Shown one piece after another: positions 5,721 to 38,494 of a DNA stretch of 64,000 bases. The stretch covers positions 647 to 64,646 of the forward strand of contig JBMFRA010000006.1 of NCBI GenBank assembly GCA_049968315.1, written 5' to 3'. Source of the DNA: Acidobacteriota bacterium (GTDB lineage: Bacteria > Acidobacteriota > UBA4820 > DSQY01). Every line of letters begins with the position of its first letter. Position 1 is the stretch's first letter. The notes under the pieces were generated by a model, which searched no databases, had not been told where the DNA came from, and saw nothing but the letters and a program-made list of their open reading frames with translations. The position numbers and the translations under genes were made by a program.

Positions 5721-5733
5721 GGAGACTCCCGCG

Positions 5734-7699: not shown

Positions 7700-7716
7700 A
7701 GCCTGGGCCCCTCCGG

Positions 7717-8256: not shown

Positions 8257-8287
8257 CCGCTCCTCCCGCGCCCTTCGGCCCTCCCTC

Positions 8288-11806: not shown

Positions 11807-11827
11807 GAAGGAAGTATAAAGAAGCGA

Positions 11828-11848: not shown

Positions 11849-11872
11849 CCGCGGGTGGGGTCCTTCGGCGGG

Positions 11873-12022: not shown

Positions 12023-12043
12023 AGTGTGAAATCCCCTCGCCTG

Positions 12044-13171: not shown

Positions 13172-13181
13172 GAATACCTTC

Positions 13182-20765: not shown

Positions 20766-23700
20766 ATGGAGGAAGCCCGGCTTCGCCATAGGCTGGCGGC
20801 CCTGCTTCCCCGGCCGGTCTGGCCCCTGGTGGCGGGGCGGGCCGAGGGGAGGCGCACGGAAGGGTGCGTCCTCTTCGCGGACCTGGCCGGCTTCACCGCC
20901 CTCACCGAGAGGCTCTCCGCCATCGGCCGGGAGGGCGCCGAGGAACTCACCCGAATCGTCAACCGGTTCTTCGAGGCCCAGATCACCGTGGTCCACCGCG
21001 CCGGCGGGGACGTCCTCCGCTTCGGCGGCGACGCCCTTACGGTCTTCTTTGAGAAGGGGGCGCGTCCGGCCCTGGAGGCGGCCCTGGCCATGCAGGCGGC
21101 GGCGGGGGCCTTCCACGAGGTGCCCACCCGGGCCGGGACCTTTTCCCTGGCCATGAAGATCGGCGCGGCGGAGGGCTCCGTCCTCTTGGGCTTGGTGGGA
21201 GATGAGGAGCGGGGGCGGGACTACTTCGCGGCGGGGAGGGCCCTGGACGACGCCGCGGAGGCGGAGCACCGGGCGGCCCGGGGGGAGGTGGTCCTCTCCC
21301 CCGCCCTGGCGGGGAGGGCCCGCTCCCTCGGCTTCGGCCTGGCGGAGGCCGGGGACGGCTTCGCCCGCCTGGAGGGCGGCGCAGGACCCCCGCCGGCCCC
21401 GGAGGCCACCCTCTCCCCGGAACCCCCGCCCCTGCTGGCCCTGGAGTCCTTCCTCCCGCCGTGGGCCGTGGAGAAGGCGCGCCTCAACGAGGGGCTGTGG
21501 GCCGCCGAACACCGGCGAACCACGGTCCTCTTCCTCTCCTATTCGGGCCTCGACTACGAGAACGACCCGAGGGTCCTGGACAAGGTGAGGGCCGTCTACG
21601 GGGAGATCGCCCGGGAGGTTCAGCGCCACGGCGGCTGGGTCAACAAGGTGGACATGGGGGACAAGGGCAGCAAGGCCATCGCCCTCTTCGGGGTCCCCCG
21701 GGCCCTGGAGGGGGCGGAGGAGGCGGCCTGCCGGGCGGCCCTCCGGATTCTGGAGAGCGGCGTTCTCCGGGAACTCTTGCCGGTGGTCCGCATCGGCATC
21801 GCCTCCGCCCCCCTTTTTGCGGGCTACGTGGGGTGCGAGGAACGGCGGGAGTTCACCGTCATGGGGGACGGGATCAACCTCTCCGCCCGGCTCATGGCCA
21901 ACGCCCACGCCTGGCGGGTCCTCTGCGACGGAGCCACCCGGGAGAAAGCGGAGGGGCGCCTCGCCTTCCGGACCCTGGACCCCATCTTCGTGAAGGGCAA
22001 GCGGGAGAAGGTCCCCATCCACCGTCCCGAGGGAGAGCGGGAGGAGGCGGAGGAGGCGGCCCGGGCCTTCGTCGGGCGGGAGGCCCTGCTGGACGCCCTT
22101 TTGCAGAACCTTACCGGGGCGGAGGGCCCGCCGGTCCTGGCCGTCACCGGCCCGCCGGGCGCCGGAAAGAGCGCCCTCCTCCACCGGCTGGGCCTCCGGC
22201 TGGAGGAGAGGGGGATCCGCCACTCCACCGTCCCCCTGGCGCCCCACAGCGCCCACGGCTACCTCTCGGCCTTCCGGCCGGTGCTCTTCTCCGCCCTGGG
22301 CGTCTCCCGCTCCGCCCCGGGGCCCATCCAGGAGGCGGCCCTGCGGGCGGCCCTCCTCCCCGAAGACCACCCATACCTCCCCCTCTTCGGCCCCGTCCTC
22401 TCCTTCGCCTTCCCGGAAACCCCCGAGACGGCGGCCCTTTCCCCCAAAGACCGGAAGGACATCCTCTTCGCCATGGCCCAGCGGATTCTGGAGGGCCTCG
22501 CCGCCGGAGGGAGGTACATCCTCTCCCTGGACGGGTTGGAGTGGGCCGACGCCGCTTCCCTGGAGTTCCTAGAGGCCTGGGCGCCCCAGCTTCTGGGCCG
22601 CGGCCTGAGGCTGGTCCTCTCCTTCCGGGAGGGGGCTGCCCCCCGGACGGCGGCCCTGGTGCCGGAGGGGGCCCACTTCAAGGTGGAGCCCTTCTCCGCC
22701 AAGGAAATCGGGGAGTTTCTGGTGCGTGCCGCCGGCGCCGCGCCGCCCCCCGAGGCTTTTGTCGCCTTCCTGCTCCGGAAGAGCGGCGGGAACCCGAAGT
22801 TCCTCGAGCAGATCCTCCGTGTCTTAGAGGAGCAGGGTCTCTTTCGGCCGGGCCCCTCGGGGCTCCTCGAGGTGGACGAGGACCGTCTTGCCGCCGCCCG
22901 GTTCCCCGACACCCTGGAGGGGATCCTCCTCTCCCGGGCCGACGGCCTCCCCGAAGGAGAACGGAGGCTCTTGAAGACGGCGGCGGTCCTGGGAACCTCC
23001 TTCTCCCTCAACCTCCTGGCCCGCCTCTCGGGGGAAGGTCCGGAGGCGGCGGCGGAGGGGGTCCGCTCCCTGGAGCGGAAGGGCTTCGTCCGGATGGATT
23101 CGTGGGGCCAGAGGCCCTACGCCATCTTCGCCGACCCCCTCCTGCGCGACGCCCTCTACGAATCGCTCACCTTCGAGGCCCGGCGGGGGCTGCACCGGCA
23201 GGCCGCCCGCTTCCTCGAGGCCGAAAGCGGCACCGACCGGCGCGTTTGGCCGGCCTTGGCCCGCCACTACGAGGCCGCCTCCGAGGCGGAACCGGCCCTT
23301 AGGTACCTGGGCCTCTGCGCCGAGGAGGCGCGGGCCCGCTACGACAACACGGCGGCCTTCGACTTCCTCTCGCGCCTGGTGGCCCTCAAGGAGGCCTCCG
23401 GAGCCCGTGCCGGGGACGACCCCGCCTACCGCCGCGCCCTTCTTCACCTGGCCGAATCGGCCAAGGAGCTGGGACGCCTCGAAGAGGCCGAAGCCCTGAG
23501 CCGCAAAATCCTCGAGAGCGTCTCCGAAGCCTGCGAGGAGACCGTCGTCTCCCTCATGCGCCTGGCGGACATCGAGCGAAGGAGGGGCAACCTGGACCGT
23601 TCCCTGGAGCTGGACGAGGAGGCCTTGGCCCGGTCCGCACCCCTCGCCGAACCGGTTTTGGAGAGCAGAATCCTCCTGGATTCAGGGGTTAGCCATGCCA

Positions 23701-24956
23701 TGGCCGGGCGCTTCGGCGAGGCCCTTTCCCGCTTCAAAGAGGCAGCGCACCTGGCGCGAAAAGCCGGTACCCCCACCTGGCAGGTCCTCGCCCTCATGAA
23801 CCAGGGGTTGTGCCAGCAGTACGGTTCGGCGGATTTGGAGTCCGCTCGCGCCACTCTCGGAAAGGCCTTGCGCCTCGCCCGGAGGTACGCCTTGAGGCCA
23901 CAGATGGTCAACCTGGCCATCAACCTGGCTCAGGTCCTGGCCGACATGGGCAAATTCGGGAGGGCTCTGGCCTTGGTGGAGGAACCCCTCTCCATTTCCA
24001 CCCAATTTGGGTACCGTACCATGTCCGCCTTTTTGATCTCCAACCGGGCGCTCTACCGGACCATGACCGGCCAGTGGGATTGGGCCGCGCAAGATGCAGA
24101 GCGGGGATACCAGCTCTGCAGGACGCACGGGATGGGCTTCTCCGAGGCGGCCACCCTCCATACCCGCGGGATCCTGCTGGCCGTGGAAGGCGCCTGGAAA
24201 GAGAGCGTGGATTGCCAGGTGAAGGCCCTGGAAAAATACTCCCTTCTCAAGAGTGAGCAAGGTGTTCGGGGTGCGGTCAGCGAACTCCTGATGGTGGAGA
24301 ATGCCCTGGGCCTGAAAAGCGGCCAACTGGGCTGGCAAGCCACCAGCGGAGTGGACCCGCGGGCGCTGTCGGAGGTCCCGGGACAGCACGGGCTGGCCAT
24401 CCGGGCCCAGCTTCTCCTGCGGCAGCGCCGCTCGGGCGAGGCGTCTCTGGCGGTTGCCTGGCAGAACATGGAGGAGATCCTGCAGGAGGCGTACCGGGCC
24501 AAGGTCCAGTGGCTCGTGGCCGAAGTGGGAGAACTCCTCCTGCGGCTTCTGTTGGAGGCTGGGAATGTGGAGGAGGCCTCCGTGGCGGGCCTAGCCGTCT
24601 ATCCCAAGGTGGTCCCGCAGAAGAGCCCCCTCAAGACCGGTGCCTTCCTCCTCACCTTCGGGGAGTGCCTCCTCGCCACGCAGCGCTGGCAGGCCCTCGG
24701 GGGGGTCCTTCGCCGCCTCCAGGCGTACGGAAAGGCCTTCGACCGAGGCCTGCTGGGATTGAGGTACCGGCTCCTGCGGGCCGAGGTTTCCGCGGGCGAA
24801 GGGCGGCTTCCATCGGCGCGGTACCACGCCCGGGCCGCCCGAAGGATCGCCGACGCCGTGGAGGCCCTCCAGCGGGACTCCCTCTTCCTGGAGGCCTACC
24901 GCAGGCTCCCCGAAATGGCTCGGCTCATGGCCCTGGAGGCCCGGCTGGGCCTCTGA
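20766..24956 (+). CDS. Large signalling ATPase: two class III nucleotidyl cyclase domains + AAA/STAND P-loop ATPase + TPR repeats
   Basis: Two cyclase-like blocks (CVLFADLAGFTALTERL...VLRFGGDALTVFF and TVLFLSYSGLDYEN...KVDMGDKGSKAIALFGVP...GYVGCEERREFTVMGDGINLSARL). Walker A LAVTGPPGAGKSALL. A long C-terminal TPR/alpha-solenoid region. No obvious HTH. Confidence 0.85.
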   Translation: MEEARLRHRLAALLPRPVWPLVAGRAEGRRTEGCVLFADLAGFTALTERLSAIGREGAEELTRIVNRFFEAQITVVHRAGGDVLRFGGDALTVFFEKGARPALEAALAMQAAAGAFHEVPTRAGTFSLAMKIGAAEGSVLLGLVGDEERGRDYFAAGRALDDAAEAEHRAARGEVVLSPALAGRARSLGFGLAEAGDGFARLEGGAGPPPAPEATLSPEPPPLLALESFLPPWAVEKARLNEGLWAAEHRRTTVLFLSYSGLDYENDPRVLDKVRAVYGEIAREVQRHGGWVNKVDMGDKGSKAIALFGVPRALEGAEEAACRAALRILESGVLRELLPVVRIGIASAPLFAGYVGCEERREFTVMGDGINLSARLMANAHAWRVLCDGATREKAEGRLAFRTLDPIFVKGKREKVPIHRPEGEREEAEEAARAFVGREALLDALLQNLTGAEGPPVLAVTGPPGAGKSALLHRLGLRLEERGIRHSTVPLAPHSAHGYLSAFRPVLFSALGVSRSAPGPIQEAALRAALLPEDHPYLPLFGPVLSFAFPETPETAALSPKDRKDILFAMAQRILEGLAAGGRYILSLDGLEWADAASLEFLEAWAPQLLGRGLRLVLSFREGAAPRTAALVPEGAHFKVEPFSAKEIGEFLVRAAGAAPPPEAFVAFLLRKSGGNPKFLEQILRVLEEQGLFRPGPSGLLEVDEDRLAAARFPDTLEGILLSRADGLPEGERRLLKTAAVLGTSFSLNLLARLSGEGPEAAAEGVRSLERKGFVRMDSWGQRPYAIFADPLLRDALYESLTFEARRGLHRQAARFLEAESGTDRRVWPALARHYEAASEAEPALRYLGLCAEEARARYDNTAAFDFLSRLVALKEASGARAGDDPAYRRALLHLAESAKELGRLEEAEALSRKILESVSEACEETVVSLMRLADIERRRGNLDRSLELDEEALARSAPLAEPVLESRILLDSGVSHAMAGRFGEALSRFKEAAHLARKAGTPTWQVLALMNQGLCQQYGSADLESARATLGKALRLARRYALRPQMVNLAINLAQVLADMGKFGRALALVEEPLSISTQFGYRTMSAFLISNRALYRTMTGQWDWAAQDAERGYQLCRTHGMGFSEAATLHTRGILLAVEGAWKESVDCQVKALEKYSLLKSEQGVRGAVSELLMVENALGLKSGQLGWQATSGVDPRALSEVPGQHGLAIRAQLLLRQRRSGEASLAVAWQNMEEILQEAYRAKVQWLVAEVGELLLRLLLEAGNVEEASVAGLAVYPKVVPQKSPLKTGAFLLTFGECLLATQRWQALGGVLRRLQAYGKAFDRGLLGLRYRLLRAEVSAGEGRLPSARYHARAARRIADAVEALQRDSLFLEAYRRLPEMARLMALEARLGL

Positions 24957-24996: not shown

Positions 24997-27900
24997 CTAT
25001 GGTCGTGTATAGGAGGCCGTGCAGTATCCCCCGTCGGGGTTCTCCAGGCGGATGGAGACGGCCTGGCCCTTGGGAAACTTGGCCTTGAGGGCCGATCCAC
25101 CCTTCAAAACGACGGTGGTGGCGTTCTTGACGGTGGCCTGGGCCCAGGGCTCGGGGTCGCTTCCAAGGTACACCCGGGCCCCCGCCTGGAAATTCTGGCC
25201 CAAGAGCTTGATCCGGAAGGGCGCTGCCATCTTGGTGACGGCAGTAATGGCCGGCGGGTCCTTCACGGCGAGGAAGGAGACCTCCGCCGCCTGCCCGGCG
25301 TCGTCGTAGGCTCGGGCCACCACCCGGTGGGCTCCGGAGGGGAGGGATGTCGGGTCCAGGCGGAAGGTGAAGGGATGGTGGAGGTCCTCCTTGCTAGCTT
25401 GGCCGTCCACGAGGAAGACCACCTTCGCCACCGCCCCATCGTCGGAGGCGGCGGCGGCCACAGCCAGGGGGGCGCTTCCCAGGACCACGTACCCCTCCGT
25501 GGGGGCGAGGAAGACTACGGAGGGAGGCGCGTCGGCCTTCACGGTGAAGGCCCCAGGGAGGGTGCGGGGAGCCCCTCCGGGGTTGGCGAGCGTCAGGGTC
25601 CGGGGCCCCGGCGCTGCGGCGGGGGCGATGGAGACCCTCAGGGCCAGCAGGTGGGGGGAGAGGAAAGAAACCTCCTGCACGGAGACCCCCTCCCCCAGAT
25701 TCACGCTGGCTCCGTCGGCAAAGTTGTCCCCGGAGAGTTCCAGGACCATCTGCCGCCCCTGGATGCCCTCGTCGGGGCGGAGGGACCCCAGGCGCGGCCC
25801 CGGCGGGGCGGGCTGGCAGTCGAAGGCAGAAGCCGGGTAGGGGGCAGTGGGTACGCCGGCCTCCCAAGAGTCCACGGGGCGCAGCGTCCCCCCTTCGAGA
25901 AGCCGGAGGTTCCGGACGGCAAGGGGGCTTCCGAAGGCGGCGCACGGAGCCCCGGAGAGGTCGAAGAGGAGGCCTTGGGTGGCGGAGCCGGGGGAGGTGG
26001 CGGTGAAGGCCGTGGAGGCGTGGGCGAGGAAGAAGTCCGAGGCGTCGTAGAGGTCCGCCGAGAGGGTGTAGTCGCCGGCGGCGGGAAGGTCCAGATTCGC
26101 CGTGAAGGCCAGGGCCTCGTAGAGGCCGTCGTCGTCGGTGTCCCACCCCTGGTCGGCGAAGGAACCGGTGAAGGCGTGGGCCGGCGGGAGGACGGCCAGA
26201 AGGTCCCTGGCGATCCGGGTGACGCCCTGCCCGTCGTAGGTCCCCTGGGCGGTGAAGAGGACGTCGTAGGCCCCCGGGAGGGATGGGGCCACACCGGTTC
26301 CGCCGAAGGAGCCGTCCCCCGCCGCCCCGTCCCCGTGCTGGCCGTCGTCGTAGAGGGTCACCGTGTCCAGGAGGGAGCCCCCCGAGAGGACGGCGGCGGT
26401 GACCGCCGTGAAGGCCAGGTCCCCCGGGTCACCGGTGAGGTCCAGCCGGTAGTGGACCGCCTCCCCGGGGGCGTACCGGTCTCTCGTCACGTGGGCCTCG
26501 ATGCCGGCGGGGCTGTTCTCGAAGGAGGTGGCCCGGAAGGTGACGCTCCCCGCGGGAACGGCCACCGAGAGGGTCCAGGTGCCGGGCTCGGGGTTTAGGA
26601 CCTGGAAGAGGAGGTCGTTTTCGCCGGCGGCGGAGGCGGCGGGGCTTCCGTGGGGATCCAGCAGGGTGAAGGAGGCGGATCCGTCCTGGACGAAGACGGC
26701 GAGGGCCATGCCGTCGGTGGCCCCCACGGGAAAGTCGAAAGACTGCGTGGCCAAGGGCCCTCCCGCGAAGGCGCTGAGGGTGCCGCCTTTGGTACCCGTG
26801 GAGCGGGCCCCTGTACCCCAAAGGCTGGAGCCCACCGGACTCAGCGGGTTCTCGTCGTCGCCGGCTGGGGCGGAGGGGGAGGCCGCGAGCGGCGTGGGGG
26901 AAGGTCCCAAAACCCCCACCCGAGGGAGGATGGTGGCGGCAAGGACGTCGGTGGCGGAGGGGGGCGATCCGAGTTCGGCGTGGTCGTAAGAGAAGATATG
27001 GCCCGGGCCGCTGTCGAAGACCACCGAGGCGTACGGGCGGCACCGGGGACCCGAGGGGTCTCCGTCGCCGCAGAGGAGCCTCACGATGGCGAAGGCCGAG
27101 AAGAGGGGGACCCTCCCGTCGGACCCCCCCATGCCCCACAGGCCTCGGTCCCCCCCAATGGCATAGACCTTGTCGGTCCAAGGGCCAAAGTTGGGGTAGA
27201 CCTCGTTAAAGCGCCGGACGATGGCGTCGGTGCCGAGGGGTCCTTCCCCCAGGCCGCCGAAAAAGAAGTCGCTCCCGCTGTTGGGGACGGCCAGGAGGAA
27301 GATCTTCTGCAAGGCCCGCATCACGAGATCCTCTCCCAGGCCTCCCCCGGCCAGTACCCGGGCCACCAGGCCCCCCATGTCGTAGGCCACCAGCGTCCAG
27401 GGCGGGTAGGGCGAGACGGAGAGGACCTTCCCGGCCCGATCTTCGAGGCCGTGGAGGTCCGCCTCGATTTGGGTGTAGACCTGGCCCGCCCGGAGGTCCC
27501 AGGAGACCTCCTGCCCCCACCAGGTGTAGTGGGGGGTGAAGGAGAAGAAGCCTGCGGCCCGCGCCCGGTTGTCCCAGTACTCCCCGGCTCCGGGACCCTC
27601 CCCCACCCACTTCCGGTAGCACCCCATCACCCCGTGGAGAAAGACGATGGGGGGCGGGAAGGCGATGTCGGCCTCCACCCCCCCGGACGGGGGGACGGCC
27701 ACCGGAGAAGCGAGGGCCCGCACCACCTCCTTCTCCAGGTACCCCCCGGGGGGGGCCGGGCAGCCGAAGCCCCGGTACTCCGCGTCGTGGAGGATGAAGT
27801 CCTTGTACCGGACCCGGGCCTCCAGGCGGTAAGTGCCGGCGGGTAGGGAGGGAAAAGCGTAGAAGCCGCGGGAGGCGGAGACGGTCTGGGCGGCGCCGGT

Positions 27901-30675
27901 GGAGACCTCCCGCGCCGTCACCGAGAGGGAGACGATCCCCTCACCGTCCAGGGGGAAGAGATCGTCGCCCTGGATGCCCACGTACCCCCACAGGGACCCC
28001 TGGGCGACCACCACCGTCCCCGTCCGGGTGCAGACGGCCTGGCCATAGGAGACGGTGAGGGTCCAGGTGTAGCTCCCCGGTGTGGTGTAGGTGTGGCTGG
28101 GGTTCTGCTGGGTGGAGTGGGCCGAGCCGTCCCCGAAGTCCCAGTCGTAGGCGGGCAGGAAGACGTCGATGCCGCAGGAGCCTTGAAGGGCCGCCCCGCC
28201 GGTGAAGGAGACCGGTAGGGGGGCCAGGCCGGACGCGGGGGAGGCCGAGGCGGAACAGAGCAGCTCACAGACGCGGATCTCGCCGCTCCGGGTGCAGGTC
28301 TCCGAATCGGCGGTGACGGTGAGGGTCCAGGTGTAGGTGCCCCCGGAGAGGTACGTGTGGGTAGGGTTCTTTTCGGTGGAGGTGGTGCCGTCGCCGAAGT
28401 CCCAGAAGAAGGAAGGGCTCTGGGAACAGCCGCTGGCCGTGGCGGAGGCGGTGAAGGCGACGGCCTGGGGCGCGATCCCGTTTGAGGGGGCCGCGGAGGC
28501 CGAGCAGGACACGGTGCATCCCGGTGGGGCGGTGGAAACCACCGACAGGAAGCCGTCGGAGTCTCCCCCCAGGGTGGTCTGGAAGGCGTTCCCCGTGAGG
28601 GGGAAGAGGTTGGAGTAGGTCCCCCCCGCGAGCCCCCACCGCGTCTCCCCCGCCCCCAGGTCCACGCGGCAGAAAAGGGCCTCGGCCCAGTCGTCGCCGT
28701 TACCGCCGAAGTAGGTGGTCAGCGTGCGCAGGGGCACTGGCCTGGGGAAGGTCCAGCCGGCCAGCAGGGCGTCCTCGGGGCCTTGGAGGGCCTCGAAGCC
28801 CGGAAAGGGGTTCAAGAGGGGCAGGTCGGCGGAGCTGGTGGCCCCGGCCACCACCAGCGAAGGGTCGGAGGAGCCTTCGCACGGGGCGGCGGCGTAAACG
28901 AAGTCGTTCCCCGAGCCCCCCAGGAAGGTGGAAAACTCCGCGGTGGTGGCGGTGGGGCCGGCGAAAAAAACCGCCGCCACGGCGTCGTAGCTTCCTCCCA
29001 GGGAAGCCTGGGTGGGCTGAACGGTAGGAAAGTCGGGCGACTGGGTGTACCCCGCCACGGCCACGAGGCCGTTGGGGAGGACGGCCAGGGAGGAGAGGCA
29101 ATCGTAAAGGCCGCCTCCCAGAAAGGTGGCGTAGGTGGGTCCGGGGTACATTCCCACGCTGTACCGCAGGAAAACACCGTCCCCGTTGCCCCGGTAGGTT
29201 TCCTGAAAGGCGCCGGGGGTGTAAGGAAAATCGTAGGAGTCGGTTTCGCCGCAGAGGAAGAGGGCCTCGGGGTCGGCTGGGTCGGCTTGGACGGCGCGAA
29301 GGGCGTCCTCTCCCGTCCCTCCCACGAAGGTGGAGAAGACAAGCTGGGAGATGCCCGGCAAGGACGGCTCGAGCACGGTGAGAAAGCCGTCGCTGCTACC
29401 CCCGAGGTAGTACTGGGGGGCGTTATCGGTCCAAGGAAAATCGGAGGAGCGGGTCTGGCCGGTGACGTAGAGCCGTCCCCAGGGCCCCACGGCCACCCCC
29501 CAGCCAGCCTCGTTGTCCCCCCCGCCCAGCCGCGTGGAGTAGGAGAGCGCTCCCCCGGCGGTGAAGCGGGCCACGAAGGCGTCATTCTGGCCTCCCGCCA
29601 GCGGGAGGCCGCCCAGCACCGGGAAGTCCGCCGAACCCGTGGTGCCGGCGAGGATCCAGTTCCCCCCGTCGTCGGTGGCCAGGGCCGCCGCCTCGTCGCC
29701 GCCGCTCCCCCCCAGGAGGGCCACGAAGTTCAGCGTGCGGGACGGCCCTTGAAAGACGGCGAGGAAGGCATCCTCGAAGCCGTGGAAGGTTCCGCCGCCG
29801 GGAAAGTCCGGCGAGTAGGTAAGGCCCGCCACCGCCAGGTTTCCGGCACCGTCCTCGCGCACTCGGGCGGCCATGTCGTACTGGGAGCCACCGAGGTAGG
29901 AGGAGTACTCCAGGGTGGGGTCCACCACCAGGGCCTCTCCCTCCCGCCTGCCTTCGATGCAAACGGCAAGGGTGCGGGGAGAGATGGGCACGAAGGAGCC
30001 CCGGAGGGTGCGCCGCCCCCCCCGGCCGTCCGCGAAGACCGCCGGCAGGTGAAGGGGAAGGGAACCGGCCTCCGTGTCGAGGACCACCTCTCCGCCTGGG
30101 AGCCGACGGAAGGCCACGGGCCGGCCGTCCAGCGACTCCGCCCGAAGCCGAAGCGGTGCGTCTCCAGCACCGGGGGTGAGGTGGAGGTCGAAGCGGAGAG
30201 CCCCGTCCAACGGGAAGAACTCCACGTCCACCCCCGGGATGGGCCCCTCCCAGAGAAGCCGGCCGTACCGCGGGATTCCGGTGATCCAGCGGGAAGGATC
30301 GCTCCCCCGGTAGAGGTGGACCACGCCAGGCAGGGGGTCCAGGGGCCGGAAGGTGCCGCCGGCGGCCCCCTCCAGGGTGAGGCGGAAGGAGGCGGCGGGC
30401 TCTTGCCCGCAGGGCACCTCCCGGCCTGGCCGGTGGCCGGGAGCGGGCGAAGCGAGGAGCACCTCCACCCCTTTGGGGCCAATGCCGAGAAAGGAGCCCG
30501 GAGAACGCGCCACAAAGGCGGCGCCGGAGGGCCCTTGGCCCAGGTTGGGTTCGAAGGCGCGCCAGAGGCCCTCCGCCGTCCCCGATGGGGTGCGGACGGG
30601 GGTGGCGGCCCAAGCGGCGACGGCCAGCGCGCAACTCACCAAGAACCCGCCCCGCTTCGCCATTGAGAATGCCAT
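24997..30675 (-). CDS. Giant secreted multidomain protein (1892 aa): SBBP beta-propeller repeats + 2 PKD domains + CarboxypepD_reg-like + alpha/beta-hydrolase-like + Ig-like domains + C-terminal IPT/TIG-like domain
   Basis: Start set at MAFSMAKRGGFLVSCALAVAAWAATP, a signal peptide. The ATG complement is at 30673-30675 and GGAGGGA lies 5 nt upstream. Upstream of that point the listed 2557-aa ORF is antisense to the oppA-like gene. SBBP repeats of the form YSTRLGGGDNEAGWGVAVGPWGRLYVTGQTRSSDFP recur about eight times. The PKD motifs are FFWDFGDGTTSTEKNPTHTY and YDWDFGDGSAHSTQQNPSHTY. The C-terminal domain is PFRIKLLGQNFQAGARVYLG...VLKGGSALKAKFPKGQAVSIRLENPDGG. Confidence 0.8.
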   Translation of the reverse strand: MAFSMAKRGGFLVSCALAVAAWAATPVRTPSGTAEGLWRAFEPNLGQGPSGAAFVARSPGSFLGIGPKGVEVLLASPAPGHRPGREVPCGQEPAASFRLTLEGAAGGTFRPLDPLPGVVHLYRGSDPSRWITGIPRYGRLLWEGPIPGVDVEFFPLDGALRFDLHLTPGAGDAPLRLRAESLDGRPVAFRRLPGGEVVLDTEAGSLPLHLPAVFADGRGGRRTLRGSFVPISPRTLAVCIEGRREGEALVVDPTLEYSSYLGGSQYDMAARVREDGAGNLAVAGLTYSPDFPGGGTFHGFEDAFLAVFQGPSRTLNFVALLGGSGGDEAAALATDDGGNWILAGTTGSADFPVLGGLPLAGGQNDAFVARFTAGGALSYSTRLGGGDNEAGWGVAVGPWGRLYVTGQTRSSDFPWTDNAPQYYLGGSSDGFLTVLEPSLPGISQLVFSTFVGGTGEDALRAVQADPADPEALFLCGETDSYDFPYTPGAFQETYRGNGDGVFLRYSVGMYPGPTYATFLGGGLYDCLSSLAVLPNGLVAVAGYTQSPDFPTVQPTQASLGGSYDAVAAVFFAGPTATTAEFSTFLGGSGNDFVYAAAPCEGSSDPSLVVAGATSSADLPLLNPFPGFEALQGPEDALLAGWTFPRPVPLRTLTTYFGGNGDDWAEALFCRVDLGAGETRWGLAGGTYSNLFPLTGNAFQTTLGGDSDGFLSVVSTAPPGCTVSCSASAAPSNGIAPQAVAFTASATASGCSQSPSFFWDFGDGTTSTEKNPTHTYLSGGTYTWTLTVTADSETCTRSGEIRVCELLCSASASPASGLAPLPVSFTGGAALQGSCGIDVFLPAYDWDFGDGSAHSTQQNPSHTYTTPGSYTWTLTVSYGQAVCTRTGTVVVAQGSLWGYVGIQGDDLFPLDGEGIVSLSVTAREVSTGAAQTVSASRGFYAFPSLPAGTYRLEARVRYKDFILHDAEYRGFGCPAPPGGYLEKEVVRALASPVAVPPSGGVEADIAFPPPIVFLHGVMGCYRKWVGEGPGAGEYWDNRARAAGFFSFTPHYTWWGQEVSWDLRAGQVYTQIEADLHGLEDRAGKVLSVSPYPPWTLVAYDMGGLVARVLAGGGLGEDLVMRALQKIFLLAVPNSGSDFFFGGLGEGPLGTDAIVRRFNEVYPNFGPWTDKVYAIGGDRGLWGMGGSDGRVPLFSAFAIVRLLCGDGDPSGPRCRPYASVVFDSGPGHIFSYDHAELGSPPSATDVLAATILPRVGVLGPSPTPLAASPSAPAGDDENPLSPVGSSLWGTGARSTGTKGGTLSAFAGGPLATQSFDFPVGATDGMALAVFVQDGSASFTLLDPHGSPAASAAGENDLLFQVLNPEPGTWTLSVAVPAGSVTFRATSFENSPAGIEAHVTRDRYAPGEAVHYRLDLTGDPGDLAFTAVTAAVLSGGSLLDTVTLYDDGQHGDGAAGDGSFGGTGVAPSLPGAYDVLFTAQGTYDGQGVTRIARDLLAVLPPAHAFTGSFADQGWDTDDDGLYEALAFTANLDLPAAGDYTLSADLYDASDFFLAHASTAFTATSPGSATQGLLFDLSGAPCAAFGSPLAVRNLRLLEGGTLRPVDSWEAGVPTAPYPASAFDCQPAPPGPRLGSLRPDEGIQGRQMVLELSGDNFADGASVNLGEGVSVQEVSFLSPHLLALRVSIAPAAAPGPRTLTLANPGGAPRTLPGAFTVKADAPPSVVFLAPTEGYVVLGSAPLAVAAAASDDGAVAKVVFLVDGQASKEDLHHPFTFRLDPTSLPSGAHRVVARAYDDAGQAAEVSFLAVKDPPAITAVTKMAAPFRIKLLGQNFQAGARVYLGSDPEPWAQATVKNATTVVLKGGSALKAKFPKGQAVSIRLENPDGGYCTASYTRP

Positions 30676-30930
30676 GGTTCCCTCCCGCCCAAGACGAGCC
30701 TTGGAGTTATACCCTATGGTTCTTAATATAGGATCGAGGGGATGCGCCGTCGAGGGCTCCTCCGCCCCACCTCTCGGGAAGGGATCCCGAAAAGCCCTCT
30801 GAAAACAAGGCCCTTTCCAAGAAACGGCCTTGGCTCGATCTGTGACCTTCCTCACAGTCCTCCTGGATCCCAGGAGCACCTTGCCACGGCCCGGGGGCAC
30901 CGGTATCCTGTCGCCACGCGGGAGGACCCC

Positions 30931-32655
30931 ATGGACCTCGGAAGGCGCCTTTTCAAAGCGGCGTTCCTTTGGCTTTCGCTTCTTCTCCTGGCCTGCGGCG
31001 GCTCCCGGGAAACGTCCCCGCCCGCCGCCGCCCCCGGGCGGATCCAACCAACGGGCCAGGCGGCCTTTCTCTCGGCCTACCAAGGAAAGCCTCCGGTGGA
31101 CGGGGGCACCTTCACCCGGCCTCTCCCCGTGGAACCGGTGACGCTGAACCCCGTGGTGGCCAGCGACCAGGTCTCCTTCCTCGTCTACAAGTGGATCTTC
31201 GACCCCTTGATCGACATGGACGAGAAGATGGAGCCCACGGGGGTGCTGGCCCGCTCCTGGGAGGTCTCCCCCGACGGCCGGACCCTGACCTTCCACCTGC
31301 GGGAGGGGGTCTTTTGGCACGACGGGAAGCCCTTCACCGCCGAGGACGTCCTCTTCACCTACCGCGCCTGCATGGACCCCACCGTGGATGCCGTCAACAA
31401 GCGGCCCACCTTCGCCGAGGTTCAGTCGGTGGAGGCTCCGGACCCGCTCACTGTCGTCGTGAAGTGGAAGGTCCCCTACGCCCCCGGTCTGGCGGCGTGG
31501 GTCCTCTACATCCTCCCCAAGCACCTCTACGACTACCCGCCGGGAAAGGGCGCCCAATTCAACACCCACCCCCTGAACGCCCGCCCCGTGGGAACGGGCC
31601 CCTTCCGCTTCGTGGAGTGGAGGAGGGGCGAAGCGGTGGTGCTGGAGGCCAACCCTTCCTACTTCCGGGGCCGGCCCCACCTGGACCGGGTCGTCTTCCG
31701 GGTCCTTCCCCAGGCCGAGACCCAGCTCGCGGCCTACCGCACGGGGACGCTGGACATGGCGGGCCTCGGCCCCGAGCAATGGGAGGCGGTGAAGAGAGAC
31801 CCCGGCTTCTGGCGGCGGTCCTCTGTCTTCGAGTATCCCGTGAGGCAGTTCTACTACATCGGCTGGAACTTGGACGGGTCGGTCCCCCTCCTCGCCGACC
31901 GCAAGGTCCGCAAGGCCCTGGCCCTGGCCCTGAACCGAAAAGGCGTGGTGGACAGGATCCTGGGTGGCCACGGCGCCCTCCTCTCCGGCCCCTTTTACCC
32001 CGACGGGTGGGAGAGCAACCCCTCCGTCCCCCCCCTCCCCTACGACCCCGCCGCCGCGGCGAGGCTTCTCGACGAGGCCGGATGGACGGACCACGACGGG
32101 GACGGCCTCCGGGACCGCGGGGGAAAGCCCTGCGCCTTCGAGTGCCTGGTCCCGGCGGAGGTGGAGATGTTCTCGAGGTGGCTGGAGGTCTTCCAGCAGG
32201 ACCTGCGCAAGGTGGGGGTGGACATGCGGGTCCGGCAGCTGGAGTGGGGGGTCTTTCTGGACCGCACCCACCGCCACCGCTTCGAGGCGTACCTTTCGGG
32301 CTGGTCCCTGGGGGACGACCCCGACCCCTTCCAGCTCCTCCACTCCTCCCAGGGAAGGCTGCTCCCCTCGGGGGTGGGGGTGGGCCAGAACGACGGCTCC
32401 TACGCCAACGCCGAGGTGGACCGCCTCATCGAGGAGCAGCAGAGGACCTTCGACCGGCAGGCCCGCCAGCGGGCCCTCTGGAGGATTCACGAGATCGTCG
32501 CCGAAGACCAGCCCCACGCCTACCTCTTCCTGGGAACCCAGATCACCGCCGTCGGGAACCGCTTCCAGAACGTGAAGGCGAGCCGAGCCGGCTACGGCCT
32601 CTTCACCTGGTACCCCTCCCTCCTGGAGTGGTGGGTGCCGAAGGAACTCCAGTAG
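30931..32655 (+). CDS. ABC transporter substrate-binding lipoprotein, family 5 (oligopeptide/dipeptide-binding OppA/DppA-like)
   Basis: Lipoprotein signal MDLGRRLFKAAFLWLSLLLLACGGS, with the ATG at 30931 preceded by GGGAGGA. An SBP family-5 body follows (VEPVTLNPVVASDQVSFLVYKWIFDPLIDMDE...SWEVSPDGRTLTFHLREGVFWHDGKPFTAEDVLFTY). The listed ORF start at 30742 adds 63 unsupported codons. Confidence 0.85.
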   Translation: MDLGRRLFKAAFLWLSLLLLACGGSRETSPPAAAPGRIQPTGQAAFLSAYQGKPPVDGGTFTRPLPVEPVTLNPVVASDQVSFLVYKWIFDPLIDMDEKMEPTGVLARSWEVSPDGRTLTFHLREGVFWHDGKPFTAEDVLFTYRACMDPTVDAVNKRPTFAEVQSVEAPDPLTVVVKWKVPYAPGLAAWVLYILPKHLYDYPPGKGAQFNTHPLNARPVGTGPFRFVEWRRGEAVVLEANPSYFRGRPHLDRVVFRVLPQAETQLAAYRTGTLDMAGLGPEQWEAVKRDPGFWRRSSVFEYPVRQFYYIGWNLDGSVPLLADRKVRKALALALNRKGVVDRILGGHGALLSGPFYPDGWESNPSVPPLPYDPAAAARLLDEAGWTDHDGDGLRDRGGKPCAFECLVPAEVEMFSRWLEVFQQDLRKVGVDMRVRQLEWGVFLDRTHRHRFEAYLSGWSLGDDPDPFQLLHSSQGRLLPSGVGVGQNDGSYANAEVDRLIEEQQRTFDRQARQRALWRIHEIVAEDQPHAYLFLGTQITAVGNRFQNVKASRAGYGLFTWYPSLLEWWVPKELQ

Positions 32656-32668
32656 GGGAGCCCTCGCC

Positions 32669-33685
32669 ATGGCGGTCTACGCCCTGCGGCGGCTCCTGCT
32701 GATGGTCCCCACCTTTCTCCTCATCACCGCCGTGGTCTTCGCGGCGGTGAAGCTGGCGCCGGGGAACCCCTTCTCCGCCGCCCGGGCCGCCGGCGAAGGA
32801 GCGGTCCGCCAGATGAACCCCGCCGACTACCAGGACCTCCTCCACCGGTACGGCCTGGACCGGCCCTGGTACGTCCAGTACGGCCGGTGGCTCGCGACCT
32901 TGGCCTCGGGCTCTCTGGGGGTCTCCTACAGCCAGCGGCGCCCGGTGAGCGAGGTCCTCTTCGGGGAGGCCTTCCCCGGAGGCGGATTCCTGTCGAGCCC
33001 CCTGGGGGCGACGCTCCTGCTCAACGTGCTGGCGACGGTGTTGATGCTGGCGGTGGCACTCCCCGTGGGATTCCAGGCCGCGCGGAGGCCCGGCGGGCCT
33101 TTCGACCGGCTGGTCTCGGGATTTCTCTACGCCCTCTACTCTCTCCCCAACTTCTGGGTGGCGGTGCTTCTCATCCTGGTGGCGGGCGTCCACTTCCGGC
33201 TCCTGCCCTTCATCGGGATGCGCTCGGAAGGCTTCGCCACCCTGGGTTTCTGGGGGAAGGCGGGGGACATCCTGCGCCACGCCGCCCTCCCGGCCCTCTG
33301 CCTGGCCTACGGGGGGATGGCCTTCATCGCCCGCTTCACCCGCCGAACCCTGCTGGAAAGCCTGGGAAGCGACTTCGTCCGGGCGGCCCGGGCACGGGGC
33401 CTCCCCGAGGGCCGGGTCCTCTGGGGCCACGGCGTGCGGAACGCCCTCCTCCCCATGGTCACCCTCCTCAGCCTTCTCCTTCCAGGGTTGGTCTCCGGTT
33501 CGGTCATCGTCGAGAACCTCTTCGCCTGGCCCGGTATGGGCCAGCTTTTCATGAAGGCCGTCTACACTCGGGACTACCCCGTGATCCTCGCCGAGTCGGT
33601 CCTGGGCGCGGTGGTGGTCCTGGGCAGCACCCTGCTGGCGGACCTCCTCTACGGCGCGGCGGACCCCCGCGTCCGGCTGGAGTGA
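32669..33685 (+). CDS. ABC transporter permease (OppB/DppB-like)
   Basis: MAVYALRRLLLMVPTFLLITAVVFAAVKLAPGNPF... is a typical OppB N-terminus. A multi-TM body and the EAA-like loop FIARFTRRTLLESLGSDFVRAARARG follow. Confidence 0.9.
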   Translation: MAVYALRRLLLMVPTFLLITAVVFAAVKLAPGNPFSAARAAGEGAVRQMNPADYQDLLHRYGLDRPWYVQYGRWLATLASGSLGVSYSQRRPVSEVLFGEAFPGGGFLSSPLGATLLLNVLATVLMLAVALPVGFQAARRPGGPFDRLVSGFLYALYSLPNFWVAVLLILVAGVHFRLLPFIGMRSEGFATLGFWGKAGDILRHAALPALCLAYGGMAFIARFTRRTLLESLGSDFVRAARARGLPEGRVLWGHGVRNALLPMVTLLSLLLPGLVSGSVIVENLFAWPGMGQLFMKAVYTRDYPVILAESVLGAVVVLGSTLLADLLYGAADPRVRLE

Positions 33686-34770: not shown

Positions 34771-35748
34771 ATGGCGGAACGCACCGAGTGGCCGCGGAAC
34801 CTGATCCTCTGGGCCACCGACCCCCGGATGACCGAGCGGGACGCCGCGGCCTGGTGCCGCGCCTGGGGCGGCGAGGAGGGGGTCTTGAGCCTGAGCGGCC
34901 CCGACACCTCCCCCGCCACGCTCCTCCGGGAACTCCGCTCCGTCCCCATGTTTCGGGAGGTCCAGCCGGTGCGCCTCCGCCACGCCGAAGGGGCGGGGGC
35001 CGACCTCCTGGCGGCCCTCGACGCCTACCTGGACAGTCCTTCACCCTCGGCGGCGCTCCTCATCGAGGCCTCGGCGGACCTCTCCAAACCTTCGGGCCTC
35101 TGGAAGAGCCTTCTCGGGAAGGTACCCTCCCGGGACCTGCGGGTCCGTTCGGTGAAGGCCTACGCCGAGCTCCGGGCGCGGTCGGAGGGCTTCCGCCTCA
35201 CCCCCGAGGCCCTGGAGGGCCTGGAGGAGTGGTCCCAGGGCGATCCAGCCCTGGCCGCCCGGGCCCTGGACCTCCTCTTCCTCTACAAGGCGGACGAGAA
35301 GGTGGTGGACGGCCCCGACCTTCCGGCCCTGCTGGGGGCCGGGGGAACCCCCCGGCAGTGGGACGCGGTGGACGCCTTCGTGCGGGGAGACGTCCGAACC
35401 CTCGCCGGGATGCTGGCGGCCATCCGGCGGGACCCCGACGCGGTTCCCCTGGCCTTCCTGGGCATGGTGGCCAAGCAGGTCCGTTCCCTTCTCTACCTTC
35501 GTTCCGCCAAGGCCGCCGGCAGAAACCTGCGGGAGGTGGAGCCCCGGGAGCTGGGCTTCGCCCACCCCGCCCCCGTGCGGCGGCTCCTGGAGAACCTGGA
35601 CCGGTGGCCCGAGGAAAAGATCCGCCGGGCCCTGGGGGTCCTCTACGACCTGGACCTCTGCCTCAAGGGCGGGGTTCGGGACGACTGGGGCCACGTGGAA
35701 CGCCACCTCCTTCGGATCCTGAAGGAGACGGTGGCGGCTCCGCCCTGA
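34771..35748 (+). CDS. holA: DNA polymerase III delta subunit
   Basis: Delta-subunit-like N-terminal clamp-loader fold (NLILWATDPRM...LLRELRSVPMFREVQPVRLRHAEG) and C-terminal helical domain. The size (325 aa) fits. Confidence 0.7.
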   Translation: MAERTEWPRNLILWATDPRMTERDAAAWCRAWGGEEGVLSLSGPDTSPATLLRELRSVPMFREVQPVRLRHAEGAGADLLAALDAYLDSPSPSAALLIEASADLSKPSGLWKSLLGKVPSRDLRVRSVKAYAELRARSEGFRLTPEALEGLEEWSQGDPALAARALDLLFLYKADEKVVDGPDLPALLGAGGTPRQWDAVDAFVRGDVRTLAGMLAAIRRDPDAVPLAFLGMVAKQVRSLLYLRSAKAAGRNLREVEPRELGFAHPAPVRRLLENLDRWPEEKIRRALGVLYDLDLCLKGGVRDDWGHVERHLLRILKETVAAPP

Positions 35749-35751
35749 GGC

Positions 35752-37374
35752 TCAGGGCGGGGGGGCGAGGGCCACCCGCCCTCCGCCTTGCTTTCGGGCG
35801 GTCTCCAGGGCGGAGGAGGCGGCGTCGAGCCAGGCCTTCAGGGTCTTCATGGAGGGGTGGGCCATGGCCGCCCCGGCGGTGAAGGTGGTTCGGAGCTTCA
35901 GCTCTTCCACCGGCCACTCGATCTGGGAGTACTCCCACAGAAGCCTCTCCAAGAGCTTCACCGCGTCGCCGGGGGTGAGGTGTTCCAGGACGACGGCCAG
36001 GAGGTTTTCGCCGTAGCGCCCCATGATGTCGGTCTGCCGCACCTTACGCTGGAGGTACCGCGCCAGCCCCTGGAGGAGGGCCGCCTGGACCCTCGGCGGA
36101 GGAAAGGGCAGTGACGGGGGGGGATCCACCTGGACGAGGACCATGGCGTAGGGGACCTGGCGGCGGCTGAAGCGGGAGAGGCAGAGGCGGGCCTGCTGGA
36201 GGAAGGGGGTGTGGGCAAGAAGCCCCGTCAGTTCGTCGTGGTCCATCATCTCCTGGAGGGAGCGGTAGCGGATGAGCCTCGACTTGACGGTGGCCAGCAG
36301 GTCCTCGGGGGTCACGGGCTTGATGAGGTAGTCGTCGCCCCCGGCCTCGGCGCCCTTGATCTGGGCCTTTCGGCGCCCCTCGGTGGTGAGGAAGACCACA
36401 GGCACCGCGGAGAAACCCTCCTCCTGGCGGAGGTACCTCACGAGGTCGTAGCCCGAGACCCCGGGCAAAAGGACGTCCATCAGCACCAGGTCGGGCCGGA
36501 AGGCGTGCAACTCCCGCTCGAAGACCATGGGGTCGGTGAGGACCCGCACCTGGTAGCCTCCCTGGGAGAGGGTCCTTTCCAGAAACTCCGCCTGGTGGGG
36601 ATCGTCCTCCACCGCCAGGATCCGGGCGGCGGAGGCCCGCCTCCGGCCCAGCAGGGCCCGGAACTTGCGGAAGAGGCTTCCGGGGTCCACCGGGGGGGGC
36701 AGGAAGCCGTCGGCCCCGCAGGCGATGGCCTCCACCTTGTCGTGGAAGAGTTCGGGGGCGCCCAGGAGGATCACGGGGATGGTTCGTTCCCCTTCGATCT
36801 CCCGAAAGCGGCGGACGAAGTCGTAGCCGGAGCCGTCGGGAAGGGAGACGGCCACCGCCGCCATGTCCGGCAGGGAGGCCCGGGCCTTCTCCAGGCCGGC
36901 GGCCATGCTCTCCGCCTGTTCCACCTGAAGGCCGCGCTTCGCCATGAACTCCGAGAGGGCGGCGCTCTCCGGGGTGGAAGGGGCCACGAGCAGGAGCAGG
37001 GGGACGGCGCGGCTCTGGAACCGGCTGGGGGCCGCCGCCTGGGTATCCATCACCCCCTGGAAGATCACCCGGAGGCGGCGGACGAGGCCCGCGACCTGTT
37101 CCAGCTCCTCGTCGGTGGGGGGGCGCTCCGAAAGGAGCACCGTGTAGCACATGTACTCCCCCTCCCCTCCCAAGGCGCTCACCTCCGGGAGGGCGTAGAG
37201 GGCCCCCGAGCCCGCGAAGTCGTGGAAGCCGGCCTGGATCTCCTCCAGCGGGCGGCGGGAGGAGCGGTCCGCCTGCAGCGCCGAAAGGAGGCGGTCCATG
37301 TCCGCCAGACGCTGGGCGCTGTCCTCCAGATAGCGGCGCCAGGATTCCGTCCGGTCCTCCCGATTCTTGGCCAT
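35752..37374 (-). CDS. Response regulator with two receiver domains and a degenerate GGDEF domain that keeps the RxxD I-site motif
   Basis: Start trimmed to MAKNREDRTESWRRYLED (ATG complement at 37372-37374). REC1 is RAVPLLLLVAPS...; REC2 is ARILAVEDDPHQAEFL...DLVLMDVLLPGVSGYDLVRYLR...KPV. A GGDEF-like domain follows (HDELTGLL...) whose A-site reads RYGENLLAV instead of GG(D/E)EF, while the RxxD I-site just upstream (RQTD) is intact. Confidence 0.75.
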   Translation of the reverse strand: MAKNREDRTESWRRYLEDSAQRLADMDRLLSALQADRSSRRPLEEIQAGFHDFAGSGALYALPEVSALGGEGEYMCYTVLLSERPPTDEELEQVAGLVRRLRVIFQGVMDTQAAAPSRFQSRAVPLLLLVAPSTPESAALSEFMAKRGLQVEQAESMAAGLEKARASLPDMAAVAVSLPDGSGYDFVRRFREIEGERTIPVILLGAPELFHDKVEAIACGADGFLPPPVDPGSLFRKFRALLGRRRASAARILAVEDDPHQAEFLERTLSQGGYQVRVLTDPMVFERELHAFRPDLVLMDVLLPGVSGYDLVRYLRQEEGFSAVPVVFLTTEGRRKAQIKGAEAGGDDYLIKPVTPEDLLATVKSRLIRYRSLQEMMDHDELTGLLAHTPFLQQARLCLSRFSRRQVPYAMVLVQVDPPPSLPFPPPRVQAALLQGLARYLQRKVRQTDIMGRYGENLLAVVLEHLTPGDAVKLLERLLWEYSQIEWPVEELKLRTTFTAGAAMAHPSMKTLKAWLDAASSALETARKQGGGRVALAPPP

Positions 37375-37507
37375 CCTGCACCCCCGCCCCTTCGCAGGGC
37401 AACTATACCCTGCCTTTCCGCTTCTGAAAAGGCGTTTGACAGAAGCCGCTCCCGGTGCTAGCGTTACAAGCTTGGCCGGCCGGGGAAGGCCGGCAGGGAG
37501 GATCCCC

Positions 37508-38494
37508 ATGCACCGGTTTTTCCGAACGATGGGCATGGTGGCGCTCGCCGCCTCGCTGGCCCTCGGGGCCGCCGCCCAGTCCAAGGGCTCCAAGGGCAAG
37601 GACGAAAAGAGCAAGGAATCCCAGAAGATCGAGGACCTGATCGCCAAGGGGGAGTACCAGAAGGCGGTGGACCTCGCCCAGAAGTTCATCGAGGCGGGGC
37701 AGGTGACCGAAGGCCTCTACATCGACCTGGGGGTGGCCCACTACAACCTGAAGAACTACGAGGCCGCCATCCAGGCCTTCGAGAAGGCCGTGGAGCAGAA
37801 CCCCTTCGGCACCCAGGCCCTCCTCTACGAGGCCACCTGCTACCACGACATGGGCCAGGAGGCGAAGGCCGCCGAGGCCTTCCAGCGGGCCATCGACGTC
37901 GATCCCACCAACAACGAGGTCCGCTACAACATCGCCCAGCTCTACGAGAAGAGCAACCGCCCCCAGGACGCCCTGGCCCAGTACCAGGCCATCTACCAGC
38001 AGAACCCGGACTACAAGGACGTGGCCTTCGCCGCCGGCATCCTCCTCTTCAACCAGGGGAAGTACGCCGAAGCGGAGCCCTACTTCGAAAAGGCCGCCGC
38101 CCTGAGCCCCTCCGACGAGCAGGTGCTCCTGGCCGTGGGCCAGAACCTCCTGAAGGCAGAGCAGTACGCCAAGGCCATCCCGGCCCTCCAGAAGTACCTG
38201 GAGGTCACCAAGAACGACACCTACAAGCCCGCCGTGCTGGACCAGGTGGCCATCGCCTACGAGAAGCAAAAGGACTACGAAGGGGCCCTCGCCGCCTACG
38301 ACCGGATCCTGGGCCTCCGCCCCAACTGGGAGAAGGCCCTCCTCGGCAAGGGAAACGCCCTGGTGAACCTCAAGCGGTACGCCGAAGCCGTCCCCGTCCT
38401 CAAGTCCTACCTCGAGGTCTCGAAGAACGAGGAAAAGAAAAAGGCGGTCCAGGACCTCCTCAAGCAGGTGGAGCCCCTGGCCAAGAAGAAGTGA
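37508..38494 (+). CDS. Secreted TPR-repeat protein
   Basis: Signal peptide MHRFFRTMGMVALAASLALGAAAQ. About eight TPR units follow (YQKAVDLAQKFIEAG..., YEAAIQAFEKAVEQNP..., QEAKAAEAFQRAIDVDP...). Confidence 0.8.
   Translation: MHRFFRTMGMVALAASLALGAAAQSKGSKGKDEKSKESQKIEDLIAKGEYQKAVDLAQKFIEAGQVTEGLYIDLGVAHYNLKNYEAAIQAFEKAVEQNPFGTQALLYEATCYHDMGQEAKAAEAFQRAIDVDPTNNEVRYNIAQLYEKSNRPQDALAQYQAIYQQNPDYKDVAFAAGILLFNQGKYAEAEPYFEKAAALSPSDEQVLLAVGQNLLKAEQYAKAIPALQKYLEVTKNDTYKPAVLDQVAIAYEKQKDYEGALAAYDRILGLRPNWEKALLGKGNALVNLKRYAEAVPVLKSYLEVSKNEEKKKAVQDLLKQVEPLAKKK

Follow-up and report, generated by a model that had tools for sequence, protein, structure and literature searches.

In a 64,000-nucleotide stretch of an Acidobacteriota genome (GenBank assembly GCA_049968315.1, contig JBMFRA010000006.1; the whole stretch is termed the window below, and positions are counted from its first letter), a gene on the minus strand codes for a secreted multidomain protein of 1892 amino acids. 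In the middle of this protein lies a lipase-like alpha/beta-hydrolase domain (amino acids ~1006-1256; 26908-27660, minus strand), delineated with AlphaFold2, Foldseek and profile searches. The domain does not have the Ser nucleophile that makes a serine lipase or esterase: the corresponding column is Asp. As judged from related sequences, this Asp is a clade-wide, selected state that derives from a Ser encoded by AGC. What the altered site does is a matter of balance between several readings. We lean, without firm conviction, towards a selected, non-esterase ligand-recognition pocket resembling that of the eukaryotic pseudoenzyme DPP6, in preference to a hydrolase working with an Asp-His-Asp triad.

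A lipase-related domain with aspartate at the nucleophile elbow

The preliminary description of the window took the segment for an alpha/beta-hydrolase of the lipase type, a view now backed by an AlphaFold2 model and by Foldseek and profile matches to bacterial lipases. Taken alone, the segment stays under every Pfam gathering threshold (best about 14 bits): in a single-sequence search Abhydrolase_1 reached E 0.036, with 14.2 bits for a threshold of 25.8, and DUF7379 E 0.037, with 14.4 bits for a threshold of 33, while the best PDB match found in this way was BlEst2 (E 0.11). Homology of the domain rests on a family profile. A word-indexed search returned two fragmentary relatives only, and an exhaustive profile search 118 homologue cluster representatives, nearly all of them multidomain proteins of 600-3000 amino acids with the hydrolase domain in central position. 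Distant homologues exceed the Pfam PGAP1, DUF676, Lipase_2 and Abhydrolase_1/6 models. When the family profile was run against the PDB, lipases came out best (E 1e-7 to 1e-5), with BlEst2 at E 1.4e-7 together with family I lipases of Burkholderia and Pseudomonas. Structure prediction depended on the depth of the alignment. An initial alignment of 3 sequences gave an unusable AlphaFold2 model (predicted local distance difference test, pLDDT, 31), and prediction was reliable only with 52 sequences, where pLDDT reached 89.9 and the predicted template-modelling score 0.89. Foldseek then placed BlEst2 (6wpy) on top, with E 9e-7 and a template-modelling (TM) score of 0.56-0.62, followed by enzymes of Proteus, Pseudomonas and Geobacillus and by PlaB; 88 PDB entries matched at E<=1e-3, and the 50 listed were all alpha/beta-hydrolases, mostly lipases and esterases. 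No sign of a fold other than the alpha/beta-hydrolase one came from AlphaFold2 or Foldseek, and on the predicted model the assignment can be regarded as secure. The domain represents a divergent, uncurated lipase-related family, sited mid-protein in giant surface proteins.

The landmarks of an active site are found in order along the domain. The motif IVFLHG begins at amino acid 1010 and contains the oxyanion-loop HG motif, H1014-G1015 (27631-27636, minus strand), which follows strand beta3; its His is invariant, and its Gly nearly so, in both the Ser and the Asp clades. VAYDMGG begins at amino acid 1096. Here D1099, whose codon GAC is read directly from the DNA (27379-27381, minus strand), occupies the nucleophile position of an elbow, A-Y-D-M-G-G, that conforms to the pattern Sm-X-Nu-X-Sm-Sm (Sm, small residue; Nu, nucleophile) and is placed by the AlphaFold2 model between a strand (1093-1098) and a helix (1100-1110). 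D1186, within S-D-G-R-V (27118-27120, minus strand), stands at the catalytic-acid position after beta7, and H1232, within Y-D-H-A-E-L-G (26980-26982, minus strand), at the catalytic-His position after beta8; these are their expected topological places in the predicted model, fold topology being the only guide. The residues invariant in the 52 full-length domains include H1014, one elbow Gly, R1106, P1131, G1134, D1186 (S-D-G-x-V) and H1232 (x-H-x-E-L-G). From this pattern of conservation, H1014 would mark the oxyanion loop, while D1186 and H1232 would supply the acid and the His expected in a canonical triad.

It had been noted early that the elbow, usually GxSxG, seemed to carry Asp, and a comparison of orthologues for Ser or Asp at the site had been proposed. 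Hidden Markov model and profile alignment puts D1099 squarely in the nucleophile column, which in the alignment of the 118 homologue clusters shows S in 94 rows, D in 19, G in 3 and E in 1. Typical Ser elbows are GHSQGGLVAR, AHSMGGLVAR and AHSKGGLVAR; the D rows are the window protein and its 18 closest clusters (E 1e-116 to 5e-68). With a profile restricted to the Asp clade, the D falls on the Ser of THSMGGLVAR (PDB 4r1d); with the combined family profile, this column coincides with the catalytic Ser in BlEst2 and in family I lipases. No other GxSxG elbow with an intact Ser was found within the domain.

The Asp codon GAC is present in 11 other gene copies across 10 related loci, so that D1099 is not a sequencing error. 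All genome matches (8/8) were to Acidobacteriota metagenome-assembled genomes (MAGs), one of them classed as Thermoanaerobaculia, and six MAGs carry the domain in intact open reading frames (ORFs) of 1600-2000 amino acids; for the Ser-clade clusters, taxonomy is almost lacking in the cluster records. In a neighbour-joining tree built with the nucleophile column masked, the Asp sequences, with a mean pairwise identity of 48%, grouped on a single branch within the Ser family. The Asp clade is monophyletic and, in this sampling, confined to Acidobacteriota MAGs. Two Gly-bearing sequences belong to the same part of the tree. The first, P0022, is the sister of the clade; it has Gly in a degenerate elbow, HGSGCFLLR, and HS replacing HG, and is encoded by an intact ORF of 1148 amino acids in a syntenic locus. 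The other, P0007, is nested in the clade and has Gly at the nucleophile position, all else being retained. In the Ser relatives sampled the Ser codon was AGC (4/4), which means that two substitutions separate it from GAC, via either Gly (GGC) or Asn (AAC), and both intermediates are devoid of a nucleophile. Synonymous variation at the Asp codon, sought as a sign of selection, was uninformative, all copies being GAC in high-GC genomes. Because the signatures of epoxide hydrolases and dehalogenases are absent (see below), the Asp stems from a single, independent Ser-to-Asp switch within the lipase lineage. As a side observation, locus L010 of one Acidobacteriota MAG has two adjacent genes (3718-8559 and 8474-12499, plus strand), each with an Asp-type domain, the elbows being AHDMGGLIAR and THDMGGLVAR. 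The N-terminus of the second is made of He_PIG repeats, not of the SBBP propeller; the pair are tandem paralogues with swapped N-terminal modules.

A constrained site and its possible functions

The residues specific to the Asp clade are W1052, W1053, D1073, D1136, W1180, L1191, A1194, S1222 and H1226. Four of them, D1136 (27268-27270), W1180, S1222 and H1226 (26998-27000), are gathered in the span 26998-27270 of the minus strand, upstream of which lie W1052 and W1053 (about 27517-27522, minus strand); each of these six is found in 84% or more of the Asp-clade sequences and in less than 20% of the Ser-clade ones. Conversely, features of the Ser clade were lost, namely the Gln that followed the nucleophile (M/A instead) and the Ser at position HG+3 (D/E/G instead). 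Most of the clade-specific residues would belong to loops after beta4, beta6 and beta7, hence to the catalytic face, if fold topology is a reliable guide. Among the modules of the Asp-clade proteins, conservation is most even in the hydrolase domain (42-49% identity, where the other modules drop to 10-40%). Set against its flanking domains, its conservation amounts to 1.23-1.33, compared with 0.72-1.15 in the Ser clade. With a ratio at least at the level of the Ser clade, the domain is still being maintained by selection and is free of decay. Conservation establishes that the site is functional; catalysis and ligand binding are not separable by this means.

The reading we lean towards would unfold as follows. 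Serine-esterase chemistry would have been lost via a Gly or Asn intermediate without nucleophile, and the pocket would then have been re-lined and maintained by selection as a non-esterase ligand-recognition site. The carboxylate of Asp1099 would pair with His1232 and with the NH groups of the oxyanion hole, shaping a binding pocket comparable to those of DPP6 (Asp) and DPP10 (Gly), and the hydrolase domain would be a further binding module on a large cell-surface scaffold. There is a precedent for such a fate: DPP6 (DPPX, Asp712) and DPP10 (DPPY, Gly651) are non-catalytic DPP4 paralogues that serve as binding subunits, and they retain the elbow, the His and the Asp, yet back-mutation to Ser fails to restore activity (PMC4350108). 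Several findings agree with a recognition pocket. Constraint is not relaxed in the domain, be it measured by module identities or by flank-relative conservation; the nucleophile seems dispensable, with an obligatory dead intermediate in the past and Gly in both P0022 and P0007; the accessory motifs of epoxide hydrolases and dehalogenases are missing, and the protein context is adhesin-like. Together, the Gly sister lineage and the DPP6/DPP10 precedent tip the balance slightly towards the non-esterase pocket. To be sure, there is weight on the other side. Among the 19 full-length clade members, 18 have Asp and only P0007, with its Gly, departs from it; the strict retention of Asp, elbow, HG motif and His/Asp pair would be equally expected of a working Asp-His-Asp triad. 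The newly fixed residues, assigned to catalytic-face loops by topology, could just as well line a new substrate site. Furthermore, the Gly variants are single metagenomic sequences, the placement of the pocket is derived from topology, and the data propose no ligand.

A serious contender, to which we give somewhat less credence, is a true Asp-His-Asp hydrolase of independent origin within the lipase lineage, with an extracellular substrate. Asp1099 would attack an electrophilic carbon, and the resulting covalent ester would be hydrolysed by water that His1232-Asp1186 activates, the oxyanion being stabilised by two backbone NH groups, that of M1100 and that of the residue following HG. This covalent-ester mechanism is that of epoxide hydrolases and haloalkane dehalogenases. 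It would account for an Asp that persists in all but one of the full-length members despite their 48% mean pairwise identity, alongside an invariant HG motif, elbow G-G, D1186 and H1232, and for a switch that coincides with the replacement of Q by M/A at Nu+1 and of S by D/E/G at HG+3, as well as with fixed W1052, W1053, D1136, W1180 and H1226. Besides, no other part of the protein is so well conserved, the domain is not relaxed when compared with its Ser-clade counterparts, and the fold is known to accept Asp as nucleophile (PMC11878206). However, such an enzyme would have to do without HGXP, without Trp after the Asp and without a clade-specific Tyr pair, and its nearest solved relatives are lipases, an epoxide hydrolase appearing only at E 0.42. 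Its mutational path would have led through a catalytically dead intermediate, Gly-bearing lineages persist both as sister to the clade and nested in it, and DPP6 keeps Asp, His and Asp without catalysis. More specifically, one may picture an extracellular Asp1099-His1232-Asp1186 enzyme, its pocket newly lined by W1052, W1053 and W1180 and by a second carboxylate, D1136. Exposed on the giant surface protein of an acidobacterium, such an enzyme would be directed at a polymer or lipid of the environment, in which it would attack an sp3 carbon, for instance that of an epoxide, of an organohalide or perhaps of a glycosidic centre; in that precise form the proposal is a little less probable still.

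Residual esterase or lipase activity has a slight chance of being correct. Asp1099 would then serve either as a general base that activates water or, by way of an anhydride intermediate, as a weak nucleophile. The homologues are of the lipase/PGAP1/DUF676 kind and the oxyanion loop, the His and the acid are intact, but the conserved Gln after the nucleophile has been lost. Moreover, replacement of the nucleophilic Ser in serine hydrolases normally abolishes acyl transfer. The known natural Asp nucleophiles of the fold act on C-O or C-halogen bonds (PMC11878206). As for an artefact or a relic, whether sequencing error, pseudogene or neutral substitution in a dead domain, its probability is close to nil. 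It could invoke the two closest metagenomic orthologues, L001 (2391-5571) and L002 (4017-12381), both of ENA ERZ25039477, where frameshifts split an otherwise collinear gene into several ORFs. These frameshifts are probably indel errors and not marks of true pseudogenes, since contig names point to a long-read assembly, and the broken copies all come from that single assembly. The GAC codon in the 11 other copies from 10 loci, the intact ORFs of six MAGs and the rank of the domain as the best conserved module of the protein all speak against decay, and explanation by sequencing error or pseudogene was rejected on this cross-genome conservation. Readings of other kinds share the small probability that is left.

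The giant gene and its neighbourhood

The gene was first met as a mechanical ORF of 2557 amino acids (24997-32670, minus strand), which the preliminary description considered over-extended. It is indeed so. The initial 665 codons are antisense to a genuine SBP_bac_5 (OppA-like) gene at 30931-32655 on the plus strand, and the spurious N-terminal extension (30676-32670, minus strand) is made up of this antisense and of a 255-bp intergenic region. Its G+C content by codon position (0.88 at first positions, GC1; 0.68 at third positions, GC3) is an antisense signature, the mirror of the gene on the opposite strand, whereas GC3 is 0.88 in the downstream 1892 codons and 0.92 in the opp gene. The true coding sequence, stop included, extends over 24997-30675 (minus strand). 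Its ATG at 30675 is preceded, four bases upstream, by the Shine-Dalgarno sequence GGGAGGGAA, and opens a Sec-type signal peptide (amino acids 1-25, MAFSMAKRGGFLVSCALAVAAWAAT; 30601-30675, minus strand). The start and the length of 1892 amino acids, which had been proposed from the sequence, agree with the identical NCBI record MGC8762465.1 (1892 amino acids, 'MAG: PKD domain-containing protein [Acidobacteriota bacterium]') and with the orthologues, which have N-terminal signal peptides at the equivalent start, just ahead of DUF7948.

From the signal peptide onwards, the protein displays DUF7948 (amino acids 41-254; 29914-30555, minus strand; Pfam E 8.3e-20), seven SBBP-type beta-propeller repeats (255-720; 28516-29913, minus strand), two PKD domains (~721-900; 27976-28515, minus strand; PKD_4 E 3.2e-32, in two stretches) and a CarboxypepD_reg-like beta-sandwich (~905-990; 27706-27963, minus strand), a weak Pfam match (E 1.6e-4) kept in orthologues, directly before the hydrolase domain. 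On the C-terminal side of the latter come a PPC-like region, a choice-of-anchor X region, a choice-of-anchor Z repeat (1625-1712; NCBIfam NF058597 E 5.2e-9) and a Big_7 Ig domain (1718-1786; Pfam E 4.1e-13), these last two together at 25318-25803 on the minus strand, and finally a terminal Ig-like domain. The module list drawn up early on is right, with the two PKD domains and, as Big_7, an Ig domain recovered with Pfam, except for its figure of about eight SBBP repeats: six T-x-S-x-D-F/L-P motifs and one degenerate repeat make 7. With the repeat region scanned by itself, Pfam SBBP reaches 21.7 bits, the cutoff being 20.5. Signal peptide, DUF7948, SBBP, PKD and bacterial Ig domains are the traits of SBBP/PKD repeat surface proteins, and the 1892-residue product is a secreted, adhesin-like surface protein. 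After the Ig-like domain, Asp-clade proteins end in a conserved ...(A/T)(S/T)YTRP followed by the stop codon (24997-25020, minus strand, in the window; also P0004, P0006 and P0015). No recognised sorting signal (PEP-CTERM, LPXTG, or that of type IX secretion, T9SS) was identified at these termini, and the motif may be an anchoring or export tag.

The giant gene stands alone, divergent from an opp operon and convergent with a cyclase-STAND gene. The OppA-like gene introduced above (Pfam E 1.7e-93) codes for a lipoprotein (signal MDLGRRLFKAAFLWLSLLLLACGG, lipobox LLLLACGG) and is the first of this opp-type ATP-binding cassette (ABC) operon; a BPD_transp_1 ABC permease comes next (32669-33685; Pfam). 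Immediately downstream of the giant gene, the convergent partner (20766-24956, plus strand) specifies an adenylate/guanylate cyclase - AAA_16 - TPR (STAND) protein of 1396 amino acids, recognised with Pfam. Its counterparts, with 44-66% identity in tblastn, are beside the Asp-type gene in L001-L004 and L006-L009, and the cyclase-STAND gene is also beside the Gly sister P0022 (L011), which makes nine related loci in all. Such synteny supports the placement of P0022 as sister of the Asp clade. The cyclase-STAND gene was not found beside the Ser-type genes examined. Upstream neighbours vary among the related loci, being an opp operon, RecN/SMC or ClpB.

Further away in the window, a second large secreted protein (8288-11872, minus strand) combines Peptidase_C25 (gingipain-like), fn3 and PKD domains, and its gene adjoins one of the radical SAM/SPASM maturase type (12044-13213, minus strand). 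On the downstream side of the opp operon, the gene at 35752-37689 (minus strand) codes for a hybrid Hpt - double receiver - GGDEF protein; with this protein and the cyclase-STAND gene, the neighbourhood is rich in genes of nucleotide second-messenger signalling. An ORF of 325 amino acids (34771-35748, plus strand) bears the strong GC3 signature of a coding sequence (0.91) but drew no match from Pfam at E<=1e-4. Its position is near the expected site of a second opp permease or ATPase.

Known relatives and parallels

The alpha/beta-hydrolase fold is a textbook scaffold for many chemistries, and the present family offers a natural experiment on it, with a lipase-type family using Ser(AGC), a Gly sister lineage and a diversified Asp clade where the conserved site is otherwise intact. 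If the Asp form is active, carboxylate catalysis would have been invented independently here, and Acidobacteriota would offer new extracellular enzymes. If it is inactive, it would be a bacterial parallel to the DPP6/DPP10 pseudoenzymes, a lipase pocket turned into a binding module on giant surface proteins. The protein was already present in public databases, annotated by its PKD domains only; at threshold Pfam misses the hydrolase family, the curated models not capturing members of the window domain's own kind. We found no description in the literature of a Ser-to-Asp clade within lipase-type hydrolases.

The best profile and structural matches are the lipases and esterases of the family I, BlEst2 and PlaB type (PDB 6wpy, 1hqd, 1ex9, 6zth). 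Beyond the fold itself, they have in common with the window domain P-x-V-x-V-H-G after beta3, an elbow of the G-H-S-Q-G-G-L-x-x-R type, G-T-P-(H/N)-x-G-S after beta6, the (N/S)-D-G-x-V acid and the C-terminal His. By contrast, the window domain has Asp and not Ser, an identity of 14-18% with a TM score of about 0.5-0.6, a disulfide-type beta-hairpin inserted between acid and His, where C1202 and C1212 probably form the disulfide, and a place within a multidomain surface protein of 1892 amino acids. As to the PGAP1/DUF676/DUF7379-like proteins (PF07819, PF05057, PF24096; PDB 4r1d), their elbow (V/I)-A-H-S-M-G-G-L-V-A-R is near-identical save for the Ser, for which the window domain has Asp while remaining below all Pfam thresholds.

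To our knowledge, a catalytic Asp at the nucleophile position of the fold is met essentially only in the group of epoxide hydrolases and dehalogenases. A superfamily classification of 2024 lists D-D/E-H triads for epoxide-hydrolase clusters only (PMC11878206), and published work on Asp-His-Asp triads deals with dehalogenases and epoxide hydrolases. With epoxide hydrolases and haloalkane or fluoroacetate dehalogenases the window domain shares the elbow Asp and the conserved His and acid. The HGXP motif is replaced by HGVM in the window protein, and no Asp-clade member has Pro at HG+2, HG being followed elsewhere in the clade by I/L/A/V and then L/F/M. Trp directly after the Asp (G-H-D-W-G) is absent from the clade, where Nu+1 is M/A/L/F. 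Neither halide-binding residues nor a cap Tyr pair specific to the clade are present, the conserved Y1020, Y1050 and Y1160 being common to the Ser clade. Specific homology to epoxide hydrolases was not detected either, a soluble epoxide hydrolase reaching only E 0.42 with the family profile against the PDB. Membership of these groups was ruled out by the missing motifs, by a homology nearest to lipases and by nesting inside the Ser family; a mechanism in common, if any, would be convergent.

The closest parallel to the pocket that we favour comes from eukaryotes. DPP6 and DPP10 belong to another hydrolase family, the S9B peptidases, and are type II membrane proteins. The likeness is nevertheless manifold: Asp in one lineage and Gly in its sister, an elbow conformation, a His and an Asp that are kept, and a beta-propeller in the same protein.

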